Shown piece by piece: positions 5,313 to 49,181 of a stretch of 64,000 nt of DNA (position 1 is the first letter of the stretch; each line of letters begins with the position of its first letter). The stretch is from Escherichia coli (GTDB lineage: Bacteria > Pseudomonadota > Gammaproteobacteria > Enterobacterales > Enterobacteriaceae). The stretch is taken from NCBI RefSeq assembly GCF_965641715.1, contig NZ_OZ282453.1; one strand, 5' to 3'. A model generated the notes under the pieces. That model was not told the origin of the DNA, ran no database searches, and saw only the letters and a list, made by a program, of their open reading frames with translations. Both the position numbers and the translations under genes were made by a program.

Positions 5313-5456
5313 GTGAAAAAGTTTCGATGGGTCGTTCTGGTTGTCGTGGTGTTGGCTTGCTTGCTGCTTTGGGCGCAGGTATTCAACATGATGTGCGATC
5401 AGGATGTACAATTTTTCAGCGGAATTTGTGCCATTAACCAGTTTATCCCGTGGTGA
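5313..5456 (+). CDS. mgrB: PhoQ-inhibitory small membrane protein MgrB (47 aa, GTG start)
   Basis: Manual translation from GTG at 5313: [47 protein letters not shown]; below the 60-aa cutoff of the ORF track. Confidence 0.85.
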
Positions 5457-5818: not shown

Positions 5819-6487
5819 TCCTTCCTCAATCTTGAGTAACCCCGTCGTTGAAGGGTTACTCAATTCATCCTGATTATACGCACTGTCATGGTGCAATTGC
5901 TTCAAATTAAAACTCTGGTCTGACTTCAAATAATTATCATATTATTTATTTGCGTAACGGGATATCAGAAAAAGATATTTACCTCATTAATTTATTAGGA
6001 TGTTTACATCGGATTTGTGATTAAGCGTGGTATTATTTATTAGCGAAACGTTTCTCTCTTGATTTTTTTGCTCACTCATCAATTTTTCTTATTTTAAATT
6101 TACAATCCCTTTGGGGATTGACTTCTCTTTAGGGTAATTGATAGCCGTTAACTGACTGTTTTATGAGAAAAAGTGATATAACTTTTTATTCATTGCATAG
6201 CAGAAAATGTGATATTGCACGCACTATGTAATAACTTCTCCCACTGGCCTGGAACAACTGAACTTATTGAACTATGTTAGAAACTACGCCAGTTTAAGTA
6301 TCTGCCTGAACTGGCAAGGTTAAGCACAATGATATATCGGCGCGTATTCCGTTGCATAAGTGTGCAAAAAAAGTGGAAGACGTATCGAGATTTGTGCGTC
6401 TGATCGAGACATGTTTAAAAATGGCTTGCCATAATTAACGTTGTATGTGATAACAGATTTCGGGTTAAACGAGGTACAGTTCTGTTT

Positions 6488-6631
6488 ATGTGTGGCATTT
6501 TCAGTAAAGAAGTCCTGAGTAAACACGTTGACGTTGAATACCGCTTCTCTGCCGAGCCTTATATTGGTGCCTCATGCAGTAATGTGTCAGTTTTATCTAT
6601 GTTATGCCTGCGGGCGAAGAAAACAATCTAA
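6488..6631 (+). CDS. yobF: Small protein YobF (47 aa), co-transcribed with cspC
   Basis: Manual translation [47 protein letters not shown], ends 12 bp before cspC start. Confidence 0.75.
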
Positions 6632-6643
6632 GGAATTTTTCAA

Positions 6644-6853
6644 ATGGCAAAGATTAAAGGTCAGGTTAAGTGGTTCAACGAGTCTAAAGGTTTTGGCTTC
6701 ATTACTCCTGCTGATGGCAGCAAAGATGTGTTCGTACACTTCTCCGCTATCCAGGGTAATGGCTTCAAAACTCTGGCTGAAGGTCAGAACGTTGAGTTCG
6801 AAATTCAGGACGGCCAGAAAGGTCCGGCAGCTGTTAACGTAACAGCTATCTGA
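6644..6853 (+). CDS. cspC: Cold-shock-domain protein CspC
   Basis: 69-aa [40 protein letters not shown]... with RNP1/RNP2 motifs. Confidence 0.95.
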
Positions 6854-6898
6854 TCGAATCCACTGATCTGAAGTGTGAATACGCTTCAATCTCGCTAT

Positions 6899-6925
6899 AA
6901 AGCCTCGTCGAATGCGAGGCTTTTT
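6899..6925 (+). terminator. Intrinsic terminator after cspC
   Basis: Stem AAAGCCTCG/CGAGGCTTT, 7-nt loop, followed by TTTTT. Confidence 0.8.
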
Positions 6926-7018
6926 ACTATGCTTTATCTTCGCTCCTGGCGTTCGGATATTTGCCCGCCGCGTGATTCGCGTTACACTTGCGGCCTTTAG
7001 TATCCTGCCGGAGTTGTC

Positions 7019-10197: not shown

Positions 10198-10998
10198 TTA
10201 GTCCAGTTCGTTATCGAGATCGTTGTTACCAGCTGCCTGAGTAGGCGCACCGGCTACGCGGTTGTATTTCGGGCTAAGTTGGATGTAGAGCACTGCCATA
10301 ACAGTACCAATCACACCCAGAGCAACCAGGTTAAAGTTGGTGAATGCTGCGGTTACGAAGCCGAGGTAGAAGAACGGCATCAGGTAGCCAGCACGCATCA
10401 TGTTGATAACCATCGCATAACCAACCACCACGATCATGCCACCGGCGATATTCAGACCATTGGTCACCACTTCCGGAATCGCATTCAGCATGTTCTGTAC
10501 TTCGCTGGTACCAACAGACAGCGCAACGATGACGGCCGGAATAGCCACACGCATTGCTTGCAGGAACAGAGAAGAAACGTGGATCCAGGAAATCGCTGTC
10601 AGGTTGCCGTTATCAGCAGCCTTATCCGCAGCGTGCTGGAAAGCAACGGTAATAGTACGAACGATGATGGTCAGTACCTGGCCCGCAGCGGCCAGAGGGA
10701 TTGCCAGTGCGATACCTGCACCAATGCTCTGATGACCTGCGATAACCAGAATGGTAGAAATGATAGAAGCCAGAGCGGCGTCAGGCGCAACTGCAGCACC
10801 GATGTTCATCCAGCCCAGCGCGATCATTTCCAGCGTACCACCGATAATAATACCGGTTTTCATATCCCCAAGAACGATACCCACCAGGGTACACGCGATT
10901 AGCGGACGGTGAAACTGAAATTCATCGAGGATTGATCCCATACCTGCGATACAGGCTACGATAAATACCAGCACAATTTGAAGAGTGGTAATCTCCAT
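10198..10998 (-). CDS. manY: Mannose PTS EIIC component ManY
   Basis: 266-aa polytopic membrane ORF. Confidence 0.9.
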   Translation of the reverse strand: MEITTLQIVLVFIVACIAGMGSILDEFQFHRPLIACTLVGIVLGDMKTGIIIGGTLEMIALGWMNIGAAVAPDAALASIISTILVIAGHQSIGAGIALAIPLAAAGQVLTIIVRTITVAFQHAADKAADNGNLTAISWIHVSSLFLQAMRVAIPAVIVALSVGTSEVQNMLNAIPEVVTNGLNIAGGMIVVVGYAMVINMMRAGYLMPFFYLGFVTAAFTNFNLVALGVIGTVMAVLYIQLSPKYNRVAGAPTQAAGNNDLDNELD

Positions 10999-12032: not shown

Positions 12033-12494
12033 TTGCTACCTCCTTTATTATCGTTAACACCTCAACGTGCCAGATGTATTTTTGAATCGTCGTCCACAAT
12101 CGAATCGATTCAGATAAGGGCTACAACCAAAAACCCCTGCGTTTCGCGATTTATTTTAGATATCGAAAAAATTATTTTATGTGATGAAGATCCGTAATTT
12201 AACTTTCGATTAGCAGAAATTTCGAAAGGTAAAATATCCTTGTCACATTCGTTTGCAAAGGAAGGTAAATCTTTGCCAAATCAGAGGCGTCTCTGATATG
12301 TTTAACTCCCGTTTAACAACCATGGAGTATAGGGCAGTAGCCCGCAGTATGGATCGTCACCGACGTCATTTCAGCATCAGGCCTTTTAACGCCTGCCTTT
12401 CTGGCACTCTATGCCGCACCTTTCGTTTGCATTTTGTCGTTACGCCTGCATTATTTCTGGCGTCGAATAGCTATTCCTTAAGCAGGAGCTTGTC

Positions 12495-14051
12495 ATGGAA
12501 TTCTTAATGGACCCCTCAATTTGGGCGGGGCTACTCACGCTTGTTGTTCTCGAAATTGTGCTGGGTATCGATAACCTGGTCTTCATCGCCATTCTTGCTG
12601 ACAAACTGCCGCCAAAACAACGCGATAAAGCGCGTTTGCTGGGGTTATCACTGGCGCTGATTATGCGTCTGGGGCTGCTGTCGCTGATTTCATGGATGGT
12701 CACGCTGACCAAACCGCTATTTACCGTCATGGATTTCTCCTTCTCCGGACGCGACCTGATTATGTTGTTCGGGGGGATATTCTTGCTGTTCAAAGCAACA
12801 ACCGAACTGCATGAACGGTTGGAAAACCGTGATCATGATTCCGGCCACGGTAAAGGCTACGCCAGTTTCTGGGTAGTCGTCACACAGATTGTCATCCTTG
12901 ACGCCGTCTTCTCGTTGGATGCGGTAATTACTGCAGTAGGGATGGTTAACCATCTGCCGGTGATGATGGCGGCGGTAGTGATTGCGATGGCGGTTATGTT
13001 GCTGGCATCCAAACCGCTGACGCGATTTGTTAACCAGCACCCCACGGTGGTGGTGCTCTGTCTGAGCTTCCTGTTAATGATTGGTCTGAGTCTGGTGGCA
13101 GAAGGTTTCGGTTTCCACATTCCGAAAGGTTACCTGTATGCCGCGATTGGCTTCTCGATCATCATCGAAGTGTTTAACCAGATTGCGCGTCGCAACTTTA
13201 TTCGTCACCAGTCGACTTTGCCGCTGCGAGCGCGTACTGCCGATGCCATCCTGCGTTTGATGGGCGGGAAACGTCAGGCCAATGTTCAGCACGATGCCGA
13301 TAACCCGATGCCGATGCCGATCCCGGAAGGTGCATTTGCCGAAGAAGAACGTTACATGATTAACGGCGTACTGACGCTGGCGTCGCGTTCTCTGCGCGGG
13401 ATCATGACGCCGCGCGGTGAAATAAGCTGGGTTGACGCTAATCTCGGGGTAGATGAAATCCGCGAGCAGCTGCTCTCCTCACCGCACAGCCTGTTCCCGG
13501 TATGTCGCGGTGAACTGGATGAAATCATCGGAATCGTACGTGCTAAAGAACTGCTGGTGGCGCTGGAAGAGGGCGTTGATGTGGCGGCGATTGCTTCGGC
13601 GTCTCCGGCGATTATCGTCCCTGAAACCCTCGATCCGATCAACCTGCTGGGCGTGCTGCGTCGTGCTCGCGGGAGCTTTGTTATCGTGACCAACGAGTTT
13701 GGTGTGGTACAAGGCTTGGTCACGCCGCTGGATGTGCTGGAAGCCATTGCGGGTGAATTCCCGGACGCTGACGAAACGCCGGAGATCATTACTGATGGTG
13801 ACGGCTGGCTGGTAAAAGGCGGTACAGATTTGCATGCCTTGCAGCAGGCGCTTGATGTTGAGCACCTTGCCGATGACGATGATATCGCGACGGTCGCGGG
13901 CCTCGTGATCTCGGCAAATGGTCACATTCCCCGTGTGGGCGATGTGATTGATGTAGGGCCACTGCATATCACCATCATTGAAGCCAATGATTATCGTGTT
14001 GATCTGGTTCGCATTGTTAAAGAGCAACCGGCGCACGATGAAGATGAGTAA
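12495..14051 (+). CDS. yoaE: TerC-family membrane protein fused to CBS/CorC domains, YoaE
   Basis: 518-aa ORF: N-terminal TerC-like integral membrane domain, C-terminal CBS pair plus CorC-like domain. Confidence 0.85.
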
Positions 14052-19348: not shown

Positions 19349-19528
19349 ATGTTTGCAGGTTTACCTTCACTCACCCATGAACAGCAGCAAAAAGCTGTCG
19401 AGCGGATCCAGGAACTGATGGCACAAGGGATGAGCAGCGGCCAGGCAATCGCGCTGGTGGCAGAAGAGCTGCGTGCCAACCACTCCGGCGAGCGAATCGT
19501 GGCGCGTTTTGAGGATGAAGACGAGTAA
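19349..19528 (+). CDS. yoaH: Small protein YoaH (UPF0181, 59 aa)
   Basis: Manual translation [59 protein letters not shown]; not in the ORF track because shorter than 60 aa. Confidence 0.75.
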
Positions 19529-24333: not shown

Positions 24334-26019
24334 TTGAAGAAGGTTTGGCTTAACCGTTATCCCGCGGACGTTCCGACGGAGATCAACCCTGACCGTTATC
24401 AATCTCTGGTAGATATGTTTGAGCAGTCGGTCGCGCGCTACGCCGATCAGCCTGCGTTTGTGAATATGGGGGAGGTGATGACCTTCCGCAAGCTGGAAGA
24501 ACGCAGTCGCGCGTTTGCCGCTTATTTGCAACAAGGGTTGGGGCTGAAGAAAGGCGATCGCGTTGCGTTGATGATGCCTAACTTATTGCAATATCCGGTG
24601 GCGCTGTTTGGCATTTTGCGTGCCGGGATGATCGTCGTAAACGTTAACCCGTTGTATACCCCGCGTGAACTTGAGCATCAGCTTAACGATAGCGGCGCAT
24701 CGGCGATTGTTATCGTGTCTAACTTTGCTCACACACTGGAAAAAGTGGTTGATAAAACCGCCGTTCAGCACGTAATTCTGACCCGTATGGGCGATCAGCT
24801 ATCTACGGCAAAAGGCACGGTAGTCAATTTCGTTGTTAAATACATCAAGCGTCTGGTGCCGAAATACCATCTGCCAGATGCCATTTCATTTCGTAGCGCC
24901 CTGCATAACGGCTACCGGATGCAGTACGTCAAACCCGAACTGGTGCCAGAAGATTTAGCCTTCCTGCAATACACCGGCGGCACCACAGGTGTGGCGAAAG
25001 GCGCGATGCTGACTCACCGCAATATGCTGGCGAACCTGGAACAGGTCAACGCCACCTATGGGCCGTTGCTGCATCCAGGTAAAGAACTGGTAGTAACGGC
25101 ACTGCCGCTGTATCACATTTTTGCCCTGACCATTAACTGCCTGCTGTTTATCGAACTGGGTGGGCAGAACCTGCTTATCACTAACCCGCGTGATATTCCA
25201 GGGTTGGTAAAAGAGTTAGCGAAATATCCGTTTACCGCTATCACTGGCGTTAACACCTTGTTCAATGCGTTGCTGAACAATAAAGAGTTCCAGCAGCTGG
25301 ATTTCTCCAGTCTTCATCTTTCCGCAGGCGGTGGGATGCCAGTGCAGCAAGTGGTGGCAGAGCGTTGGGTGAAACTGACAGGACAGTATCTGCTGGAAGG
25401 CTATGGCCTTACCGAGTGTGCGCCGCTGGTCAGCGTTAACCCATATGATATTGATTATCATAGTGGTAGCATCGGTTTGCCGGTGCCGTCGACGGAAGCC
25501 AAACTGGTGGATGATGATGATAATGAAGTACCACCGGGTCAACCGGGTGAGCTTTGTGTCAAAGGACCGCAGGTGATGCTGGGTTACTGGCAGCGTCCGG
25601 ATGCTACCGATGAGATCATCAAAAATGGCTGGTTACACACCGGCGACATCGCGGTGATGGATGAAGAAGGGTTCCTGCGCATTGTCGATCGTAAAAAAGA
25701 CATGATTCTGGTTTCCGGTTTTAACGTCTATCCCAACGAGATTGAAGATGTCGTCATGCAGCATCCTGGCGTACAGGAAGTCGCGGCTGTTGGCGTACCT
25801 TCCGGCTCCAGTGGTGAAGCGGTAAAAATCTTTGTAGTGAAAAAAGATCCATCGCTTACCGAAGAGTCACTGGTGACTTTTTGCCGCCGTCAGCTCACGG
25901 GCTACAAAGTACCGAAGCTGGTGGAGTTTCGTGATGAGTTACCGAAATCTAACGTCGGAAAAATTTTGCGACGAGAATTACGTGACGAAGCGCGCGGCAA
26001 AGTGGACAATAAAGCCTGA
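24334..26019 (+). CDS. fadD: Long-chain fatty acid-CoA ligase FadD
   Basis: Acyl-CoA synthetase motifs ([22 protein letters not shown]); start placed at TTG giving [14 protein letters not shown] (561 aa) as I recall it; the track ORF starts 22 codons upstream at ATG. Confidence 0.85.
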
Positions 26020-26038
26020 GCGTTAAGTCAGTCGTCAG

Positions 26039-26064
26039 ACGCCGGTTAATCCGGCGTTTTTTTT
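26039..26064 (+). terminator. Intrinsic terminator after fadD
   Basis: Stem ACGCCGG/CCGGCGT with TTAAT loop, followed by 8 T. Confidence 0.8.
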
Positions 26065-29446: not shown

Positions 29447-31057
29447 TCAGTTGTCGCCTTTGAATACGGTTCCCGCAGGGAGCACTGGTGTTTTTTCCAG
29501 GGCTTCAACCGGTGTCTGCGGGAGATAATGTTCAACTTGATGAGCCGGAATGTCGGCGTAATCCTGTTTCAGCCAGCGAATAAATCCGCCGACTTTCACC
29601 AGTAAAATGACGAGGAAGGGAAGGGCTGTGAGCACGACGGTGGTTTTCATCGTTTCCAGCGAAGCACCGGTAAACAAGATGGAAAGCGGGATCAGAGTGA
29701 TCACCACGCACCAGAAAAGACGCAGCCCACGGTCAGGATCGTCACCTTCCTGGAGATTACGCGTACTGGTCGCCGCCATGGTGTAGGCCACTGCATCCAT
29801 ATGCGAGGCAAGGAAAATAATCATTACGCCCAGGTATGCGGCGAGGAACAATTTACCGGCTGGCAACGACATCAGAACTTGCTGTACAGCTGTTTCGCCG
29901 CCCAGTGTTTCCAGCACCTGTGGGACGTTGATTACGCCATTGATAAACTGATGAATGGCATAGCTTTCCATTACGCCGAAGAAGAACCAGCAACCGACGG
30001 TGCTGCCGAGGATCAGTCCCCAGATAACTTCTTTAATCTTACGACCGCGGGAAACGCGGGTGACAAACATTGCTACGCCAGGGGGGTATGAGATCCACCA
30101 CAGCCAGTAGAAAACGGTCCAGTTGCGGGTAAATGAACCATCGCCAAGCGGATCGGTGAATAAGCTCATTTGCAGGAAGTTTTGCGTGGTCAGACCGATG
30201 GCATTGATGATGCTGTTGGTAATAAATTCGGTTGGACCGACAATCAGCACCAGTAATGTCAGCAGGAACGCGCCCCAGCCAACCATTTTGCTCAGACGTT
30301 GCAAACCGTTGTTGATACCAATCCATGAGCTTAGGCAAAAAATGCCGCCGGAAAGCAGGATCACAAATGCCTGCACGGTGAAGTTATCGGGTAAACCGGT
30401 CAGTGCGGAAAGTCCGCGAGTAAAGGTTGCTGCGGTGACAACAAGGGAAATAGTCAGTGCGCCGACAGTGGCGATCAGGAACATCAAATCAACCAGTTTT
30501 CCCCATGGGCCTTGCGGGCGAACGCCGGTAATCGCGGCAATAATGCCGGAAAGACTCAGACCTTTGTTTTTCCGCACATGAAAGTGATAAGCCATGATTA
30601 ATGAGGCCAGCGTATAAGTTGCCCAGGCGCTGATGCCCCAGTGGAAGAAGGAGTAAGGGACGCTAAATTCGAGTGCCTGTTGTGAACGCGGTGCGATATT
30701 TAATCCAGGCGTTTGATAATAATAGGCCCATTCAGCAACCCCCCAATAAAGCGTAGAAGAACCTAAACCGGCACAAATAAACATAAACAGCCAGGAGAGC
30801 GTGCTGTATTCCGGTTTTCCTTCGCCAAGACGAATATTGCCGTATTTACTGGTGGCTAAATAAATCACCAGTCCCATTGCCAGCAAAACCAATACCTGTA
30901 CGGCGGAACCTAACGTACGCGTAACAAAAGTGTATATTGCGTTGGCCGCGTCGGCCGATTGTTGTGGGAAAAGGCTTAATGCAGCTGCGATGAAAAGAAT
31001 GGCCACCAGGCTGATGCTTATCAGCGGCACATCTTTTTTCTTAACATTGCTCATCAT
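29447..31057 (-). CDS. yeaV: BCCT-family (betaine/carnitine/choline) transporter YeaV
   Basis: Polytopic membrane ORF with Trp-rich BCCT signature region ([14 protein letters not shown]); true start codon uncertain, full track ORF given. Confidence 0.8.
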
Positions 31058-31261
31058 GAGTCATCTCCTGGGCATAAAAGCCCGTCTCTGGCTTTTGCCA
31101 GTTGTAATTATTTGCAGGGTAATGAGTTGTATGTTGTGTTTAACAAATTGATTATTTGCATGTTACATAAATTAAACAATTAAGAATACGGAAAGCCATA
31201 AAACACGAAACGGAAACAATAAAAGGTGAAATGACGCAGGTTATTAACTGCAAAGAACGAA

Positions 31262-34356: not shown

Positions 34357-34479
34357 ATGCTTCAAATCCCACAGAATTATATTCATACGCGCTCAACGCC
34401 TTTCTGGAATAAACAAACTGCACCTGCTGGAATATTCGAACGTCATCTTGATAAAGGAACGCGCCCGGGGGTTTACCCC
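34357..34479 (+). pseudogene. yeaR: yeaR 5' fragment (codons 1-41), interrupted by IS186
   Basis: MLQIPQNYIHTRSTPFWNKQTAPAGIFERHLDKGTRPGVYP then reads into the IS and stops after 13 foreign codons. Confidence 0.85.
34468..34478. repeat. Left target-site duplication of IS186 (GGGGTTTACCC)
   Basis: Identical 11-mer recurs at 35817-35827 immediately after the right end of the IS. Confidence 0.8.
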
Positions 34480-35816
34480 ATAAGCGCTAACTTAAGGGTT
34501 GTGGTATTACGCCTGATATGATTTAACGTGCCGATGAATTACTCTCACGATAACTGGTCAGCAATTCTGGCCCATATTGGTAAGCCCGAAGAACTGGATA
34601 CTTCGGCACGTAATGCCGGGGCTCTAACCCGCCGCCGCGAAATTCGTGATGCTGCAACTCTGCTACGTCTGGGGCTGGCTTACGGCCCCGGGGGGATGTC
34701 ATTACGTGAAGTCACTGCATGGGCTCAGCTCCATGACGTTGCAACATTATCTGACGTGGCTCTCCTGAAGCGGCTGCGGAATGCCGCCGACTGGTTTGGC
34801 ATACTTGCCGCACAAACACTTGCTGTACGCGCCGCAGTTACGGGTTGTACAAGCGGAAAGAGATTGCGTCTTGTCGATGGAACAGCAATCAGTGCGCCCG
34901 GGGGCGGCAGCGCTGAATGGCGACTACATATGGGATATGATCCTCATACCTGTCAGTTCACTGATTTTGAGCTAACCGACAGCAGAGACGCTGAACGGCT
35001 GGACCGATTTGCGCAAACGGCAGACGAGATACGCATTGCTGACCGGGGATTCGGTTCGCGTCCCGAATGTATCCGCTCACTTGCTTTTGGAGAAGCTGAT
35101 TATATCGTCCGGGTTCACTGGCGAGGATTGCGCTGGTTAACTGCAGAAGGAATGCGCTTTGACATGATGGGTTTTCTGCGCGGGCTGGATTGCGGTAAGA
35201 ACGGTGAAACCACTGTAATGATAGGCAATTCAGGTAATAAAAAAGCCGGAGCTCCCTTTCCGGCACGTCTCATTGCCGTATCACTTCCTCCCGAAAAAGC
35301 ATTAATCAGTAAAACCCGACTGCTCAGCGAGAATCGTCGAAAAGGACGAGTAGTTCAGGCGGAAACGCTGGAAGCAGCGGGCCATGTGCTATTGCTAACA
35401 TCATTACCGGAAGATGAATATTCAGCAGAGCAAGTGGCTGATTGTTACCGTCTGCGATGGCAAATTGAACTGGCTTTTAAGCGGCTCAAAAGTTTGCTGC
35501 ACCTGGATGCTTTGCGTGCAAAGGAACCTGAACTCGCGAAAGCGTGGATATTTGCTAATCTACTCGCCGCATTTTTAATTGACGACATAATCCAGCCATC
35601 GCTGGATTTCCCCCCCAGAAGTGCCGGATCCGAAAAGAAGAACTAACTCGTTGTGGAGAATAACAAAAATGGTCATCTGGAGCTTACAGGTGGCCATTCG
35701 TGGGACAGTATCCCTGACAGCCTACAAAACGCAATTGAAGAACGCGAGGCATCGTCTTAACGAGGCACCGAGGCGTCGCATTCTTCAGATGGTTCAACCC
35801 TTAAGTTAGCGCTTAT
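34479..35816 (+). mobile_element. Insertion sequence IS186 (IS4 family), about 1338 bp
   Basis: Perfect 22-bp terminal inverted repeats ATAAGCGCTAACTTAAGGGTTG (34480-34501) and its reverse complement (35795-35816); single transposase ORF; flanked by an 11-bp direct repeat; boundary uncertain by 1 bp on the left. Confidence 0.9.
34528..35646 (+). CDS. IS186 transposase (DDE, IS4 family)
   Basis: 372-aa ORF MPMNYSHDNWSAILAHIGKPEELDTSARNAGALTRRREIRDAATLLRLGLAYGPGG... recognised as the IS186 transposase. Confidence 0.9.
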   Translation: MPMNYSHDNWSAILAHIGKPEELDTSARNAGALTRRREIRDAATLLRLGLAYGPGGMSLREVTAWAQLHDVATLSDVALLKRLRNAADWFGILAAQTLAVRAAVTGCTSGKRLRLVDGTAISAPGGGSAEWRLHMGYDPHTCQFTDFELTDSRDAERLDRFAQTADEIRIADRGFGSRPECIRSLAFGEADYIVRVHWRGLRWLTAEGMRFDMMGFLRGLDCGKNGETTVMIGNSGNKKAGAPFPARLIAVSLPPEKALISKTRLLSENRRKGRVVQAETLEAAGHVLLLTSLPEDEYSAEQVADCYRLRWQIELAFKRLKSLLHLDALRAKEPELAKAWIFANLLAAFLIDDIIQPSLDFPPRSAGSEKKN

Positions 35817-36251: not shown

Positions 36252-36398
36252 TTATCACTGATCGTTGATGGCGCAATTTCTGCGCCATCGCAAAATAATC
36301 CTCCGTGATGCTCGTCACAAATCTTGCCCTCCCGATGTTGTGCTATGCTTTTTATCAGCGACTAACCCGCTAATGCAAAACAGATAAGTGAGGAAACA

Positions 36399-36647
36399 AT
36401 GGGCATTCTGTCATGGATTATTTTTGGGCTTATTGCCGGTATTCTGGCGAAGTGGATCATGCCAGGTAAAGATGGTGGTGGATTCTTTATGACTATCCTG
36501 CTGGGGATAGTCGGTGCCGTAGTCGGCGGATGGATCAGCACGCTGTTTGGCTTTGGTAAAGTTGATGGCTTCAATTTTGGCAGCTTCGTGGTTGCCGTTA
36601 TTGGTGCGATTGTCGTGCTATTTATCTACAGGAAGATTAAAAGTTAA
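36399..36647 (+). CDS. yeaQ: Transglycosylase-associated (GlsB/YeaQ/YmgE) small membrane protein YeaQ
   Basis: 82-aa Gly-rich two-TM ORF. Confidence 0.85.
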   Translation: MGILSWIIFGLIAGILAKWIMPGKDGGGFFMTILLGIVGAVVGGWISTLFGFGKVDGFNFGSFVVAVIGAIVVLFIYRKIKS

Positions 36648-36661
36648 CGCTTAAATTGCAC

Positions 36662-36695
36662 AAAGGCTGCACACAGGCAGCCTTTGCTATTTTTT
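36662..36695. terminator. Intrinsic terminator after yeaQ, possibly bidirectional
   Basis: Stem AAAGGCTGC/GCAGCCTTT with 6-nt loop, followed by T-run; convergent yoaJ ends at 36706. Confidence 0.7.
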
Positions 36696-36705
36696 AGAGG
36701 TGACG

Positions 36706-36780
36706 TTACCACCATCCCAGCTCAGTGCCGAGTACGACAATAATCGCCACACCCATCATAATAATCGTTGTTTTTTTCAT
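36706..36780 (-). CDS. yoaJ: Very small membrane protein YoaJ (24 aa)
   Basis: Manual translation MKKTTIIMMGVAIIVVLGTELGWW. Confidence 0.6.
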   Translation of the reverse strand: MKKTTIIMMGVAIIVVLGTELGWW

Positions 36781-36782
36781 CT

Positions 36783-36881
36783 TTATGCTCCCGGGGCAGC
36801 ATAGCCGCCAATAAAAAACCATGCTAAAAATACGACCGCTGTAATGAAGATTACAACCGGAAAAATAATACCGATTCGCAT
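36783..36881 (-). CDS. yoaK: Very small membrane protein YoaK (32 aa)
   Basis: Manual translation MRIGIIFPVVIFITAVVFLAWFFIGGYAAPGA, immediately upstream of yoaJ. Confidence 0.6.
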   Translation of the reverse strand: MRIGIIFPVVIFITAVVFLAWFFIGGYAAPGA

Positions 36882-36913
36882 GTTATCACCAATCAAAAGG
36901 ATGTGAATACGCC

Positions 36914-37939
36914 TCAGGAATGTAGCGCTGGATGCGTGACAAAAGGTGTTTTCTGTTTGTGTTTTTTCTCCTGATACATCGCGATATCGGCAGCATGCAG
37001 GGCACTGTCTGCATCGGTCGTTTCAGGATCGACTTCTACTATGCCAAGACTGGCACCGGGATAATACAAATCAACATCACCTAAGTGATATTCTCCACGT
37101 ATTTGCTGTTGAATACGTTCTCGCAGCGACGAAATATCCGCATTCTCGTTGTTTAGTGAAACAACCAAAAACTCATCACCACCGAGACGACCAATAACTT
37201 CGCCATTTTGCTGGAGCGTATTAAGGCGCTCGCCAACCTGAATGAGAAACAGATCGCCACTATTATGACCAAAACGATCATTGATTAATTTGAAGTTATC
37301 CAGATCGATAAACGCGATCATTATCTTATGGTTAAGATGCCGGGCGAGGGAAAACAGCGTCGTCAGATTTTCAAAAATCGCCCGCCGATTCGGTAGCCCG
37401 GTTAACGAGTCGGTATACGATTGCGCAATCAGCGCAGCATTGGCTTCGCGCAGCTGTTCAACCAGTGCCTCTTTTTGAATATATTGTGCAATCAGTCCGG
37501 CGAATAACTGTAAAACCTGTTCCGCGCGTTCACTCCACTGGCGCTTCTCACTGCTGGCGGCGCAAAGCGTGCCATAGAATGATCCATCCGGTAAGTGAAT
37601 TGGCGTGCTCAGAAATGTGGTGATGCCAAGATTGCGTGCCGCAATACAGTCGCCCCAACGGTCAGGGACTTCATCGCTGAAAAAGCAGTTTTCATCAATG
37701 GCGCGTTTGCATAACGAGTAATCCCACGAGACGGTAAAATTCTCCGGGATGTGCATTTTCTGGCTGTTACGGGCAAACATAATATGCTGCAGGCGCGCTT
37801 CGACATCCACTTTGGTCAGGTAGGTTGATTCCATATCAGTGACCATTTCCAGCATCTCCAGAAGCTGTCGGACCAGACTTTCCAGTGACTGTTCTTTGGC
37901 AAGGGATTGCGAGACGCGGGCGATAATCTGATCTGACAC
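36914..37939 (-). CDS. dgcP: Diguanylate cyclase DgcP (YeaP), GAF-GGDEF
   Basis: GGDEF active-site motif RLGGDEFLVV; start set at GTG giving MSDQIIARVSQ (341 aa), track ORF extends 43 codons upstream. Confidence 0.8.
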   Translation of the reverse strand: MSDQIIARVSQSLAKEQSLESLVRQLLEMLEMVTDMESTYLTKVDVEARLQHIMFARNSQKMHIPENFTVSWDYSLCKRAIDENCFFSDEVPDRWGDCIAARNLGITTFLSTPIHLPDGSFYGTLCAASSEKRQWSERAEQVLQLFAGLIAQYIQKEALVEQLREANAALIAQSYTDSLTGLPNRRAIFENLTTLFSLARHLNHKIMIAFIDLDNFKLINDRFGHNSGDLFLIQVGERLNTLQQNGEVIGRLGGDEFLVVSLNNENADISSLRERIQQQIRGEYHLGDVDLYYPGASLGIVEVDPETTDADSALHAADIAMYQEKKHKQKTPFVTHPALHS

Positions 37940-38121
37940 GGAACAACTCCAGGATACGGCGGGTAAATGCTGATTATTTAATCTTTGCAGGCATGATAAA
38001 ACATCATCAACAAAGATGAAACAAGACGTAATATGTTTTGAGTGAATGTAATAAAAATAGTGCTGCAAAACAAAACGATACCGCGATACTCTAAGCTTGG
38101 ATACATATGTGAGATCAATAA

Positions 38122-38376
38122 ATGAAAATTATCAGTTTTGTTCTGCCTTGCTTGCTGATCCTAGCTGGTTGTTCAACCCGTTCTCAGCCAGAAGCACCTA
38201 AACCGCCGCAGATTGGTATGGCAAATCCGGCGTCGGTCTATTGCCAGCAGAAGGGCGGGACGCTCATTCCAGTGCAGACAGCGCAAGGGGTCAGCAACAA
38301 TTGCAAATTACCGGGTGGTGAAACGATTGATGAATGGGCATTGTGGCGACGGGACCATCCGGCTGGTGAAAAATAA
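38122..38376 (+). CDS. yoaF: Lipoprotein YoaF (DUF333)
   Basis: 84-aa ORF with lipoprotein signal and lipobox LAGC. Confidence 0.8.
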   Translation: MKIISFVLPCLLILAGCSTRSQPEAPKPPQIGMANPASVYCQQKGGTLIPVQTAQGVSNNCKLPGGETIDEWALWRRDHPAGEK

Positions 38377-38397
38377 CCGCCGGATGCCGTACTAAAA

Positions 38398-38745
38398 TCA
38401 CAAGCTACGTAGCCAGTCGGCCAGCACCAGCGCATGGTTCTGCGTGGCGTTTTTTGCTGAGTAGAGCAGGGTCAGCGGCTGTTTTTTGGCGATGTCCGCT
38501 AGCCGCTTTCCTTCTTGCTCGTGTTGCGCCAGTTCTGCAAGATATTGCTCGCGAAAGGTTGCAAAATCGACGACTTCGCCGTGAAAGGCTTTGCGCAGTT
38601 CCGTTGACGGCGTGATTTCTTTATCCCACTCATCAAGGGCTAAATCGGTTTTTTTGATACCGCGCGGCCAGAGGCGGTCGACCAGTATGCGATAACCATC
38701 GCTCTGTTCTGCCGGATCATAAACGCGTTTGCACTGAATATTCAT
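38398..38745 (-). CDS. yeaO: DUF488 protein YeaO
   Basis: Start set at MNIQCKRVYDP (115 aa); track ORF begins 7 codons earlier. Confidence 0.8.
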   Translation of the reverse strand: MNIQCKRVYDPAEQSDGYRILVDRLWPRGIKKTDLALDEWDKEITPSTELRKAFHGEVVDFATFREQYLAELAQHEQEGKRLADIAKKQPLTLLYSAKNATQNHALVLADWLRSL

Positions 38746-38799
38746 CGTGTTTGTTCTCCCTTTCACGCATGATTTGTCACGTCACTATAGCACCGGATA

Positions 38800-39981
38800 T
38801 TAGCGAATTTCTTTGTCTCTTCCGGCGCAAAGTCCGAAAATCGCCATCAGTAGTGAAAGTATTGCAACACCCATCAGTGGTACGGACCAGTCACCGTTAG
38901 CATCGTGCATTTTACCCATCAGCGGCGGCCCACAGGCTGCCAGCAAATACCCGACGGATTGTGCCATCCCCGAGAGTGCCGCCGCCTGATGCGCAGAACT
39001 TGCCCGAAGACCAATGAACGTCAACCCCAGTATCATTGTTGCGCCGGAACCAAAACCGAAAAGCAGAGTCCAGGTGATCGCATGCGCTGGCATAAAGCAG
39101 AGCCCAACCGCGCCCACTGCGCACATCAAGGCAACGAACGCTGCAATACCACGCTGATCTTTCACATGATGTAAGAAAAGTGGGATCAGCAAACCGGGCG
39201 CTGCTGTGGCTAGTTGCAGCAAACCATGCAGTGAACCCGCCTGTGCTTCGCTATAGCCGTGACTGATGAGGATCGCCGGAAGCCAGCCAATAATCACGTA
39301 ATAGATCAGTGAGTTGATCCCAAGAAACAATGTTACCTGCCAGGCAAGCGGCGAACGCCAGATACCCCGAGTATGTAAGGCGCGCGAGGTACTCAAATTT
39401 GCATGTTGTTGGCTTCGCCACTGTGGCAGCCATAAAAAAAGAGCCAGCAGAGGAAAACACATCAGCATGAGCAACGCGCCTTGCCAGCCAAAACCGTTCA
39501 AAGCCAGCGGCACTACCATAGCCGATCCCAGAGCCGCCGCAGCTCCCATTGTCAGGGAATATGCGCCGGTAAGTCTGGCGACGGAATGAGGGAAATCGCG
39601 TTTAATTAATCCTGGCAGTAAGACATTACCTAATGCAATCCCACCGCCAATGACCGCTGTACCGCCAAATAATAAGTAAGGCGAAGGGAGAGAGCGAATT
39701 GCGATACCTGCACAGATCAAAAGTAACGCGGCAAACAGGCTACGTTCCATACCAAAACGTCGCGCCACCGGGGCAGCCAGAGGTGAGATTAGCGCAAAGG
39801 CCAATAATGGCAGGGTGGTCAATAAGCCGGTTTGCGCAGTCGTCAGCGAGTAAGCGGAACGAATCGTATCGAGTAACGGTGCTGCGCCGGTGAAGGTGAC
39901 GCGTAATGTAGTGGCAATCATCAGAATGCCAGCGATAAGGACAATCCTGTTTTTGCCGCTTAATGAAGTTGAACAGGTCAT
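38800..39981 (-). CDS. nimT: MFS transporter NimT (YeaN), 2-nitroimidazole exporter
   Basis: 393-aa 12-TM ORF, cyanate-permease-like MFS. Confidence 0.8.
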   Translation of the reverse strand: MTCSTSLSGKNRIVLIAGILMIATTLRVTFTGAAPLLDTIRSAYSLTTAQTGLLTTLPLLAFALISPLAAPVARRFGMERSLFAALLLICAGIAIRSLPSPYLLFGGTAVIGGGIALGNVLLPGLIKRDFPHSVARLTGAYSLTMGAAAALGSAMVVPLALNGFGWQGALLMLMCFPLLALFLWLPQWRSQQHANLSTSRALHTRGIWRSPLAWQVTLFLGINSLIYYVIIGWLPAILISHGYSEAQAGSLHGLLQLATAAPGLLIPLFLHHVKDQRGIAAFVALMCAVGAVGLCFMPAHAITWTLLFGFGSGATMILGLTFIGLRASSAHQAAALSGMAQSVGYLLAACGPPLMGKMHDANGDWSVPLMGVAILSLLMAIFGLCAGRDKEIR

Positions 39982-40077
39982 ATGCTTCTCATTGTTACAA
40001 ACGAGGCTGTACCTTACCGTTTTTATTGTTATGTTGAATCAAGCTAAAATGACAAATTATCGCTAAATTCGGACAAA

Positions 40078-40899
40078 ATGATGCACAGGTTGAATCTCAA
40101 TGGCTATGAACCCGACCGACACCATGAAGCCGCGGTCGCATTTTGTATTCACGCCGGAACGGATGAGTTAACCAGTCCTGTACATCAGCACCGCAAAGGA
40201 CAGCTGATACTGGCGCTACATGGTGCAATTACCTGTACGGTGGAAAATGCTTTGTGGATGGTGCCGCCACAATATGCGGTTTGGATACCGGGCGGGGTGG
40301 AACATAGCAATCAAGTGACAGCTAACGCTGAACTCTGTTTTCTGTTTATCGAACCCAGCGCAGTGACAATGCCGACAACATGTTGCACATTGAAAATATC
40401 GCCCTTATGCCGGGAATTGATTTTAACCCTGGCAAACAGGACGACGACTCAGCGTGCTGAGCCGATGACCCGCAGATTAATTCAGGTCCTGTTTGATGAA
40501 CTCCCTCAGCAGCCACAACAACAGCTGCACCTGCCCGTTTCTTCTCATCCTAAAATCCGCACGATGGTGGAGATGATGGCGAAAGGGCCCGTCGAGTGGG
40601 GGTCATTGGGGCAATGGGCTGGCTTTTTTGCGATGAGTGAACGCAATCTTGCCCGACTGATAGTAAAAGAGACGGGGTTGAGTTTTCGCCAGTGGCGTCA
40701 GCAGTTACAGCTGATTATGGCGCTTCAGGGATTAGTGAAAGGCGATACTGTACAGAAAGTTGCTCATACGCTGGGGTATGATTCAACAACGGCCTTTATT
40801 ACTATGTTTAAGAAAGGCCTGGGGCAAACGCCAGGCCGATATATTGCGGGATTAACTACTGTTTCCCCACAATCAGCGAAACCAGACCCGCGGCAATAA
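40078..40899 (+). CDS. nimR: AraC-family regulator NimR (YeaM)
   Basis: 273-aa ORF: cupin-like N-terminal domain and C-terminal AraC HTH; divergent from nimT. Confidence 0.8.
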
Positions 40900-41302
40900 G
40901 CGGGCCAACCGGTACGCCGCGAAACAGCGCCACGCCTAAAACAGTGCCCACCAGCAGCCCGGCGACCAGTTGCGGCTGGCTGCCCATTAACGTCACGCCG
41001 CGCCCACCCAGCCAGGAGACAATAACGCCTACTGCAATTGCCACCAGCGATTTCCAGTTCAGAAACGAGTGAATCAGGGTTGAGGGTGGTAGCGTCCCGC
41101 TGGCGATGGGGGCCATAACGCCAATCGTCAGAATGATTATCCCGATACTTAGCCCCTGTTTTTCAATCCACGGGAAAAAGGTGCTTAACGGTGTGACGCG
41201 GACAATGATCAACACCAGAATTGAAACGGCGACAGTGGTGTTATGACTGATAAAGCCCAGCGCAGCTAACCCGAGCAGGATCAGCAAAGTGACATCAAAC
41301 AT
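40856..41302 (-). CDS. yeaL: UPF0756 inner-membrane protein YeaL
   Basis: 148-aa hydrophobic ORF; its 3' end overlaps the nimR 3' end by 44 bp on the opposite strand. Confidence 0.8.
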
Positions 41303-41471
41303 CGTGGTTTCCTTGCCAAAAAATAATAAGCCTGCTTACTTTACGCTTGCTGCAGGAAGGAAGTAGAAAATCTTTACGTTTTTTGCATAAAAAATCAGGC
41401 GAACTGTCATCAAACTGCCATTTGTGCACGCTAACAATAACGTGAAAACAGCTATCTCCCGGGGGCATACT

Positions 41472-41576
41472 ATGAACGATCAAATGTTCGTCGAGACACT
41501 GATTATCACGTCATCGTTTTTTGCCATTGCGGTTGTGCTGGTTTTGTCCGTTCTGCTTATTGAACGGACAGGCTAG
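41472..41576 (+). CDS. yoaI: Small membrane protein YoaI (34 aa)
   Basis: Manual translation [34 protein letters not shown]. Confidence 0.65.
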
Positions 41577-42080
41577 TTACGCAGTGCGGCGGAAATTGAT
41601 CAGTTCTGGTTGCGCAATGCGCAAATAATCCGCGGTTTTCAAAATAACGGATTTATCCAGCATCCCTGCATTGAAGGCGATTTCATCAAATCGTTCGAAG
41701 AGTAGGGGGTCGGCAACCAGTTTGAGTTTTGGATGGAAGCTGAAAGGGGGGATCGCGCCGAAGACACAGCCTGTGAGTTCATCGACTTCCGCCGGGCTGG
41801 CCAACGAAGCGCGTAATCCGCCTATATGGCTGGCGAGTTGGCTCAGATCGGCCTGTTGATCGGCAGCGAGGATCGCCAGAACATGTTGATTTACGCCATT
41901 GCCTTTGACTTTACATACCAGTGCCTTAGCACCCTGGCCTAGAGCGGTGCCACGAATTTCTGACACCGCTTCACATTTACCTACCGCTTCATGGGTAACG
42001 ACGCGGAAATCAGCACCTTCTTGTGATAATAAAGCGATTAACCGCTGATGCGTCACGCTTCCTTTAGCCATTTCAGTCAT
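41577..42080 (-). CDS. yeaK: YbaK/ProX-type aminoacyl-tRNA deacylase YeaK
   Basis: 167-aa ORF with YbaK-like domain. Confidence 0.85.
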   Translation of the reverse strand: MTEMAKGSVTHQRLIALLSQEGADFRVVTHEAVGKCEAVSEIRGTALGQGAKALVCKVKGNGVNQHVLAILAADQQADLSQLASHIGGLRASLASPAEVDELTGCVFGAIPPFSFHPKLKLVADPLLFERFDEIAFNAGMLDKSVILKTADYLRIAQPELINFRRTA

Positions 42081-48746: not shown

Positions 48747-49181
48747 GGTATGCCGTCCTTTCGTTTTTTAGCACAGGTTAAGAGCCGTTCATATGAATAG
48801 TAGAGGCTCCCGGAAGAGGTAAACTGAACGACGTCTCTTGCTAAAACACAGCAACTCTCATGCCATTTTATCGACGATGAGAACAACGTGCCCGGTGATA
48901 CACCTTCAAAATTAAGCGTAGATGGCAAATGGAAAACTTGCCTACACGGCTTTCTTAATTTCAATGGCATATCAACAACTCATCCATACATTTTGCATAA
49001 TTAATGTAAAGACTAGGCTCGCCAGTAACGCTAAATTCATTTGGCTGTAAGCGCGGTGTCATCCGCGTCAGGAAAATTAAACAGTTACTTTAAAAAATGA
49101 AAACGTAAAAAGGTTGGGTTTCGATGTATTGACGGGTAAACTTTGTCGCCCGCTAAACATTTGTTTAAGGAATGATTAATT

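Follow-up and report, generated by a model that had tools for sequence, protein, structure and literature searches.

The window, a stretch of 64,000 nucleotides (nt) of Escherichia coli DNA, carries between positions 36706 and 41576 three very short genes, yoaJ, yoaK and yoaI; yoaJ ends with its stop codon at the first of these positions and yoaI at the second. The yoaJ gene (36706-36780, minus strand) encodes a single-pass inner-membrane protein of 24 amino acids (MKKTTIIMMGVAIIVVLGTELGWW), yoaK (36783-36881, minus strand) a single-pass inner-membrane protein of 32 amino acids (MRIGIIFPVVIFITAVVFLAWFFIGGYAAPGA), and yoaI (41472-41576, plus strand) a membrane protein of 34 amino acids, and each product is identical to its namesake in the K-12 strain. 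On the evidence presented below, we are highly confident that all three are genuine, previously annotated genes, each for an inner-membrane peptide with a single helix, and that they belong to two unrelated transcription units.

These are known genes, and nothing new is claimed about the genes themselves. The initial annotation of this DNA, which worked from a list of open reading frames (ORFs) with a cutoff of 60 amino acids, had named them together with mgrB, yobF and yoaH elsewhere in the window, as small proteins found only by manual translation. All six ORFs indeed exist at or near the places given, under the correct gene names and with peptides identical to those of K-12, and the cutoff does hide the three genes of interest, as the longest ORFs that contain yoaJ, yoaK and yoaI measure only 38, 37 and 50 amino acids. 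Manual translation is not the only way to find them, however, since all are annotated both in K-12 and in PGAP/RefSeq, and equivalog models exist in NCBIfam. YoaJ matched NF011343 (equivalog) over residues 1-24 of 24 with 60.4 bits (cutoff 54), YoaK matched NF033821 over the full length of the 32-residue model with 69.1 bits (cutoff 32), and YoaI matched NF041475 (equivalog) over the full length of the 34-residue model with 79.8 bits (cutoff 45). No family in the local Pfam copy matched any of the three, although YoaK homologues carry the precomputed label PF28021:YoaK from a newer Pfam. Compared with K-12 yoaJ (b4675), yoaK (b4676) and yoaI (b1788), the peptides, gene order, spacing, Pho box and terminator are all the same here, and the differences are confined to synonymous or intergenic nucleotides; in yoaI, for example, 6 of the 105 bases differ, all six synonymously. 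Overall, the initial annotation was right on gene identity, while several of its details, taken up below, were wrong or outdated.

Transcription units and expression signals

On the minus strand, yoaK and yoaJ lie downstream of dgcP (yeaP; 36914..37939), which is annotated as a GGDEF diguanylate cyclase gene and stands first in the unit; an operon yeaP(dgcP)-yoaK-yoaJ has been reported from RNA-seq, and the order dgcP, yoaK, yoaJ is kept in most genera. The yoaK ATG is found 33 nt after the dgcP stop codon, and is preceded at a distance of 4 nt by a Shine-Dalgarno-like GGTGA (36886..36890, minus strand) that has a weak duplex energy of -2.8 kcal/mol; a purine-rich motif of this type is retained in nearly all orthologous loci. 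A promoter-like match at 36907-36880 (minus strand) was ignored, as its -10 element overlaps the yoaK ATG and such matches were fewer than in shuffled sequence. The yoaK and yoaJ genes are arranged in tandem and only 2 nt apart (TAA-AG-ATG), the Shine-Dalgarno sequence of yoaJ (GGGAG; 36788..36792, minus strand) being located inside the last yoaK codons (P-G-A), 7 nt upstream. Of 46 loci, 45 have the yoaJ start at -4, -1, 0, +2 or +3 nt from the yoaK stop, and carry GGAG or GGGG a short way upstream. In view of this near-zero junction and of a Shine-Dalgarno sequence that lies within yoaK, YoaK and YoaJ are most likely made by translational coupling.

Between the stops of yoaJ and yeaQ there is an intrinsic terminator of bidirectional design (36661..36686), in which CAAAGGCTGC-N6-GCAGCCTTTG is flanked by an A-run and a T-run. 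Nearly all comparable yoaJ/yeaQ spacers (47-64 nt; the 850-nt spacer of locus L016 was left out of the hairpin folding) show a GC hairpin between runs of A and T, and since the hairpin is kept even though the stem sequences differ between genera, it was taken to be a conserved bidirectional terminator. The first unit reads dgcP, yoaK, yoaJ and ends at this terminator, which it shares with the convergent yeaQ (36399..36647, plus strand), a gene for a membrane protein of the GlsB/YeaQ/YmgE family.

On the plus strand, yoaI is divergent from yeaL (40856..41302, minus strand; DUF441), and the 169-nt spacer between them contains a Pho box, i.e., a PhoB binding site, at 41405..41422 (plus strand; TGTCATCAAACTGCCATT), 67 nt before the yoaI start. 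The 18-mer is identical to the PhoB site mapped by chromatin immunoprecipitation sequencing (ChIP-seq) upstream of yoaI in K-12, where the published yoaI RNA values of 12,266 in the wild type and 28 in a phoB deletion amount to a more than 400-fold dependence on PhoB. Of 37 orthologous loci, 35 have a Pho box with two or fewer mismatches at -60 to -75, compared with 3.8% of shuffled controls. The Shine-Dalgarno sequence of yoaI, GGGGG (41461..41465, plus strand), lies 6 nt before the ATG with a duplex energy of -8.6 kcal/mol, and a G-rich sequence is kept at this place among the orthologues. At its other end, yoaI abuts yeaK (41577..42080, minus strand; mischarged aminoacyl-tRNA deacylase) stop to stop, so that TAG is directly followed by TTA; the gap is 0 nt here, and 30 of 33 loci keep it within -4 to +28 nt. 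As abutting stops leave no space for separate terminators, we infer that the 3' ends of the yoaI and yeaK transcripts necessarily overlap. Within yoaI, a 9-bp hairpin at the 3' end (about 41547-41570) was considered as a terminator or regulatory stem and rejected as lineage-specific, since it is not conserved within Escherichia and RNAalifold gave no consensus.

The geometry of the two loci thus differs in part from the initial annotation, in which both appeared as convergent genes packed almost stop to stop. That description holds for yoaI and yeaK; yeaQ and yoaJ are convergent as well, but with a spacer of 58 nt, whereas yoaK/yoaJ are tandem and yeaL/yoaI divergent, neither pair being convergent.

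For YoaI, a mechanism is available from the literature. A start peak has been published from Ribo-RET profiling, and SPA-tagged YoaI was recovered in the membrane fraction, its level rising at low Mg2+ in a way that depended neither on PhoQ nor on transcription. The protein interacts with EnvZ in two-hybrid assays and activates EnvZ-OmpR, as followed through omrB, ompC and ompF reporters and with the variants E31A and E31Q; residue E31 is required for EnvZ binding, and overexpression of YoaI leads to a longer lag phase. It is described as a PhoB-induced activator of EnvZ, also in a review. The yoaI gene is transcribed alone from a PhoB-dependent promoter and, according to these published experiments, YoaI accumulates under phosphate or Mg2+ limitation, binds the sensor kinase EnvZ via the conserved C-terminal glutamate E31 and stimulates EnvZ-OmpR signalling. 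The view that, MgrB excepted, most of these small proteins have no defined function is therefore outdated, all the more as a growth defect specific to low Mg2+ has been reported for the loss of YobF.

Coding status and conservation of the peptides

As many as 123 ORFs of at least 20 amino acids overlap the 6.5 kb around these genes, so that ORFs of 24-34 codons are abundant by chance, and for this reason their conservation was tested. Orthologues were sought by tblastn in 80 Enterobacteriaceae loci around the neighbouring gene yeaL, and YoaJ was found in 61 of them, YoaK in 47 and YoaI in 43. The YoaJ ORF was 24 amino acids long in 60 of its 61 loci and always started with ATG or GTG, while that of YoaK measured 32-34 amino acids in 46 of 47; in YoaK and YoaI, too, the orthologous ORFs are of conserved length and begin with ATG or GTG. 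The initial annotation had proposed codon periodicity as a check, and the expected pattern was indeed found, nucleotide diversity being highest at codon position 3, lower at position 1 and lowest at position 2 in all three genes (positions 1/2/3: yoaJ, 0.27/0.15/0.52; yoaK, 0.20/0.06/0.50; yoaI, 0.35/0.19/0.55). The ratio of nonsynonymous to synonymous change (pN/pS) was 0.33 for yoaJ, 0.16 for yoaK and 0.42 for yoaI in frame, against 0.98-3.15 in shifted frames of the same bases. It is to be noted that choosing the matches for their protein similarity pushes pN/pS downward, a bias that does not affect the conserved length, start codon, Shine-Dalgarno sequence and promoter. As judged from these comparisons, the peptide sequences, and not merely the ORFs, are under purifying selection.

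A hydrophobic window of transmembrane (TM) grade was retained in every YoaJ, YoaK and YoaI orthologue; the best 15-residue hydropathy window of YoaJ scored 2.5 here and at least 2.1 across all orthologues. In YoaJ, K3, T5, A12, G22 and W23 are invariant, and the copy in the window has the conserved (K/R)K(T/S)T N-terminus, the GWW C-terminus and the position directly after yoaK and before the convergent yeaQ. Across 29 distinct chromosomal orthologues, YoaK has 13 invariant columns besides the start methionine (G4, F7, P8, F12, A15, F18, L19, W21, F22, G26, Y27, P30 and G31), and the copy studied here carries the motif G4, F7-P8, A15, W21-F22, G26-Y27 and P30 within its single hydrophobic helix. 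In YoaI, I12 and V27 are invariant, and position 31 is glutamate in 34 of 36 distinct orthologues, including the present one, and aspartate in the other two. The most conserved residues of YoaJ and YoaK lie toward the C-terminal end of the helix and just beyond it (GWW in YoaJ; WF..GGYA.PG in YoaK). The N-terminus is positively charged in both, pointing to an N-in/C-out topology that has been confirmed by experiment for YoaJ only. YoaJ has been reported as integral to the membrane with this topology, and to co-precipitate with RseP (PMC4597795); it has also been reported as induced by diamide, SPA-tagged YoaK has been seen by western blot, and both peptides have been described as class II RseP substrates that are cleaved in vitro.

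YoaK-like genes in prophages and phages

A profile of YoaK orthologues was searched against 1.84 billion representative proteins, and retrieved only 53 clusters, all of short proteins. Eight distant members were examined for their genomic context, and in five of them the yoaK-like gene was found 0-48 nt after a CI-type repressor gene, in the immunity regions of lambdoid or Rac-like prophages. The remaining three comprised one at the end of a MASE5-GGDEF cyclase gene, one in an unrelated context and one on a contig that was too short. In the first of these (L086, 1883-3135), the distant homologue overlaps the 3' end of the MASE5-GGDEF gene, which makes it a second, differently built combination of a diguanylate cyclase with a YoaK-type peptide.

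By tblastn, a YoaK-family ORF was also detected in the cultured phages HK106, mEp234 and mEp506 and in one Klebsiella phage. In HK106 (L091, 2501-2599) it is located between a cI-like repressor gene and hicAB, which is the slot where lambda carries rexAB, and in mEp234 and mEp506 it likewise lies between cI and hicAB. The GenBank/RefSeq records of HK106 and mEp234 do not annotate the ORF, whereas the record of the Klebsiella phage labels it 'CI transcriptional regulator'. A scan of IMG/VR yielded 80 YoaK loci, of which 54 were of phage type; the other 26 (L137, L153-L177) were rejected as phage genes, since they are chromosomal dgcP-yoaK pairs at the edges of prophage predictions. An ORF of 128-255 amino acids ends 12-172 nt upstream of the yoaK-like ORF in 45 of the 54 phage-type loci, and the ten most diverse of these 45 upstream ORFs all carry HTH_3, Peptidase_S24 and/or Phage_CI_repr domains; the other nine loci have another context. 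(The related loci of the family are L085, L087, L088, L091, L092, L094-L152 and L178.)

The phage copies vary as coding sequences, with diversities of 0.22/0.15/0.56 at the three codon positions, and a pN/pS of 0.27 in frame vs 1.2-1.9 out of frame. When phage-type members were added in a 12-sequence alignment, P8, A15, W21-F22 and Y27 remained invariant, and G4, F7, G26 and P30 were at least 90% conserved. In 6 of 5426 E. coli genomes, such copies already carry the PGAP name 'YoaK family small membrane protein'. Among PHROG and PADLOC families, none matches the phage-borne YoaK ORFs, and a limited literature search found no paper that discusses an association of YoaK with prophages. No phage relatives of YoaJ or YoaI were found. 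The yoaK gene of the window itself follows dgcP in the chromosome rather than a repressor gene, and thus lacks the position typical of the phage copies.

Annotated YoaK-family ORFs were also noted in Klebsiella pneumoniae plasmid records (H45-H49, 60-275 kb), in three cases at record positions 330-407, and these plasmids may be phage-plasmids. Three apparent YoaK-YoaJ fusion proteins (P0001, P0003 and P0024) were set aside, since they look like homopolymer frameshift artefacts and not natural fusions.

Other small genes and the regional setting

The remaining small genes named in the initial annotation are mgrB (5313-5456, plus strand; 47 amino acids), yobF (6488-6631, plus strand; 47 amino acids, upstream of cspC) and yoaH (19349-19528, plus strand; 59 amino acids, UPF0181). 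The description of the set as small membrane proteins applies to yoaJ, yoaK, yoaI and mgrB, which have a TM-grade helix, but not to YoaH, which is soluble, with a best 15-residue hydropathy window of 1.07. An Rfam match of the cspA-thermoregulator type (6468-6928, 136.7 bits) spans both yobF and cspC, which places yobF within a structured, leader-like region of the cspC transcript.

It had further been suggested that the intergenic regions might hold more unannotated small ORFs, and two screens lent this no support. A comparative screen of all ORFs of 12-75 amino acids in the 31-51.3 kb segment, about one-third of the window, against 74 non-Escherichia loci recovered yoaK and yoaJ; yoaI was missed solely on account of a non-conserved N-terminal extension in its longest ORF, and no intergenic small-ORF candidate in this segment survived inspection. 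The three best candidates, at 48961-49062 (minus strand), 36305-36373 (plus strand) and 39982-40047 (plus strand), were judged non-coding, as they have in-frame stops in relatives and only short DNA blocks are conserved, and ORFs antisense to annotated genes were set aside because a low pN/pS is a known frame artefact there. In an intrinsic screen of the whole window, covering 401 intergenic ORFs of 10-62 amino acids, the combination of a strong Shine-Dalgarno sequence with a TM-grade helix was found only in mgrB, yoaJ and yoaI; yoaK has the helix and a weaker Shine-Dalgarno sequence. The intergenic regions of the window are therefore unlikely to hide more membrane-peptide genes with a strong ribosome-binding site, while soluble or leaderless peptides are of a kind that these screens would miss. 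The only further small gene, missed in the initial annotation, was yoaL (12349-12507, plus strand), a 52-amino acid upstream ORF that overlaps the start of yoaE and is already annotated in K-12. Its translation is needed for yoaE, since yoaE-lacZ expression drops strongly once a stop codon is placed in yoaL.

The whole window is colinear with about 1851.7-1915.7 kb of K-12 MG1655, in reverse orientation and with about 98.9% identity, except for two stretches without a K-12 counterpart. One of these is a 1338-bp insertion element of the IS4 family inside yeaR (34479-35816), with terminal inverted repeats CATAAGCGCTAACTTAAGGGTT and a duplicated GGGTTTACCC on both flanks, which is absent from this site in K-12 and whose terminal inverted repeats look IS186-like. 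The other is a segment of 224 bp (30930-31153); with it, the yeaV ORF (31057..29447, minus strand) encodes 536 amino acids as opposed to 481 in K-12, and the K-12 yeaV thus seems to be 5'-deleted. The 6.5 kb around the three genes has matches in 5420 of 5426 complete E. coli genomes, at least 80% of the region being present in 5403 of 5426, and yoaJ, yoaK and yoaI are each single-copy per genome. An Rfam scan of 36.3-42.2 kb found no family, antisense and small RNA (sRNA) families included.

Several other features were recorded in passing. The convergent nimR and yeaL genes overlap by 44 nt at their 3' ends (40856-40899), forming a third tight convergent pair of the region, and the overlap is retained in Escherichia and several other genera (nimR match end at about 10407 vs yeaL end at 10444, in locus positions). 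The sRNA sroD (Rfam RF00370, 115 bits) was located at 25978-26063. Upstream of yeaG (48851-48985, minus strand), a sigma-54-like TGGCAT-N5-TTGCT motif was seen, with a block of about 21 nt, GATGAGTTGTTGATATGCCAT, about 100 nt further 5'; the block is conserved across genera and is considered non-coding because the overlying ORF is interrupted by stops in relatives.

Possible modes of action

Judging from what other small membrane proteins do, YoaJ and YoaK would most likely bind a larger protein of the inner membrane and tune it. Known examples are AcrZ (with AcrB), CydX (with cytochrome bd) and MgtS (with MgtA), all of them small inner-membrane proteins with a larger complex as binding partner. 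YoaJ and YoaK resemble them in size, in having a single helix and in conservation limited to Enterobacterales, but whereas AcrZ, CydX and MgtS have partner complexes, only the binding and cleavage by RseP have been reported for YoaJ and YoaK. YoaI can be compared with MgrB, which acts on PhoQ, and MzrA, which acts on EnvZ, as all are small membrane proteins that bind and tune a sensor kinase; YoaI is induced by one two-component system and acts on the kinase of another. Nonetheless, MgrB, encoded in the same window, inhibits PhoQ while YoaI activates EnvZ, and the two are not related in sequence; MzrA, at 127 amino acids, is likewise unrelated in sequence to the 34-residue YoaI. In contrast to MgrB and MzrA, YoaJ and YoaK are without a known kinase partner.

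Several observations weigh against parts of this description. The RseP cleavage results conflict between tags, and chromosomal RseP cleaved neither YoaJ nor YoaK; moreover, deletion of the whole yeaJ-yeaV region has been treated as fitness-neutral in M9 glucose. The probable coupling of yoaK and yoaJ was read from the sequence layout, and the presumed 3' overlap of yoaI and yeaK likewise from the sequence. The yoaI gene is absent from the Citrobacter freundii complex, Klebsiella, Raoultella and Kluyvera. In Salmonella (L021, L046) and Citrobacter amalonaticus, yoaK-yoaJ persist without dgcP, and in Kosakonia and Phytobacter (L037-L047), as also in L023, yoaJ is retained beside a decayed or frameshifted yoaK; the three genes are therefore separable and do not form an obligate functional set. 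Lastly, a terminator-like hairpin stands between dgcP and yoaK in some Enterobacter, Leclercia and related genera (L032, L034, L052, L053, L062, L063, L067, L077, L078 and L081), e.g., CCCGT-N7-ACGGG followed by a T-run, 20-45 nt before yoaK. There is none in Escherichia, and this suggests a lineage-specific uncoupling of yoaK-yoaJ from dgcP transcription.

This separability bears directly on the idea that YoaK and YoaJ serve diguanylate cyclase signalling as accessory subunits, which would tether or regulate the cytoplasmic DgcP at the membrane. The gene order in most genera, the reported operon and the distant homologue at the 3' terminus of MASE5-GGDEF, a cyclase gene of different build, speak for it, but with yoaK-yoaJ kept in genomes that lack dgcP, and many family members residing in prophages with no GGDEF gene nearby, we regard such a role as improbable. 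The short and hydrophobic nature of the ORFs, reminiscent of Hok, Ibs, Ldr and TisB, could also suggest type I toxins or regulatory leader peptides instead of stable functional membrane proteins, and the longer lag phase on YoaI overexpression and the presence in the window of one true regulatory upstream ORF, yoaL, fit this notion. It is nevertheless very unlikely, since the Rfam scan revealed no antisense or sRNA partner and each gene is single-copy; yoaK-yoaJ are downstream of dgcP and followed by a terminator, and yoaI is followed by the convergent yeaK, neither being the place of a leader; selection acts on the peptide sequences; and the tagged proteins accumulate in membranes according to published work. 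Even less credible, to the point of being negligible, is the notion that these ORFs occur by chance in DNA that is conserved but non-coding. Their sheer number in the 6.5 kb would allow it, but the conservation tests have refuted it, given the codon periodicity, the low in-frame pN/pS and the length, start and Shine-Dalgarno sequence conserved across genera, along with published protein detection.

A different origin is suggested by the distribution of the YoaK family, which may belong originally or mainly to prophage lysogeny. The peptide would be co-expressed with the repressor and act on a host inner-membrane protein, for example by excluding superinfecting phage or modulating induction, and yoaK in the chromosome would be its counterpart resident in the host, with the same action and no dependence on DgcP. 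Genes next to the repressor that are expressed in lysogens are known in temperate phages, such as rexA/rexB of lambda and the superinfection-exclusion gene sie2009 of lactococcal phages. The phage-borne YoaK ORFs share with these the slot right after the repressor gene and the coding of a membrane protein; however, the YoaK-like peptides, of about 32 residues with one helix, show no sequence similarity to the products of rexA/rexB and sie2009, and the yoaK of the window is chromosomal and follows dgcP rather than a repressor gene. In favour of the lysogeny proposal are the small and uniformly short family, the repressor-adjacent position in five of eight distant members, in three cultured phages and, by domain content of the ten most diverse upstream ORFs, in the 45 IMG/VR loci, the coding-type evolution of the phage copies, and the retention of yoaK-yoaJ in Salmonella without dgcP. 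On the other side, matches to PHROG or PADLOC families are lacking, nine of the 54 phage-type loci are in other contexts, and chromosomal yoaK belongs to the core genome, is syntenic with dgcP and is probably coupled to yoaJ, which has no phage relatives; further, a post-repressor position indicates likely expression in the lysogen, not what the peptide does. Taken together, the sequence data hint at an action of YoaK-type peptides in the lysogen, directed at a membrane target of the host, and we consider the lysogeny origin a possibility that is better supported than the accessory role with DgcP but still doubtful. Just as tentative is its fuller form, in which the membrane peptides of about 32 residues that temperate lambdoid and Rac-like phages carry directly behind the repressor gene would form one family with YoaK as its member in the host, the phage and chromosomal forms acting on the same inner-membrane host target, for example by blocking the entry of phage DNA or altering induction.

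As originally put, the finding of a cluster of very small genes matters little, since these are reference-annotated genes with curated family models and, for yoaI, a published mechanism. What the sequence adds independently is that the frames are coding and have conserved expression signals, together with a corrected gene geometry. YoaK, on the other hand, gains a concrete lead, as its homologues are found under purifying selection in the repressor operons of many prophages and cultured lambdoid phages, where phage annotation at present overlooks them, and this prophage association of the family is the only part of the finding that is worth following up.

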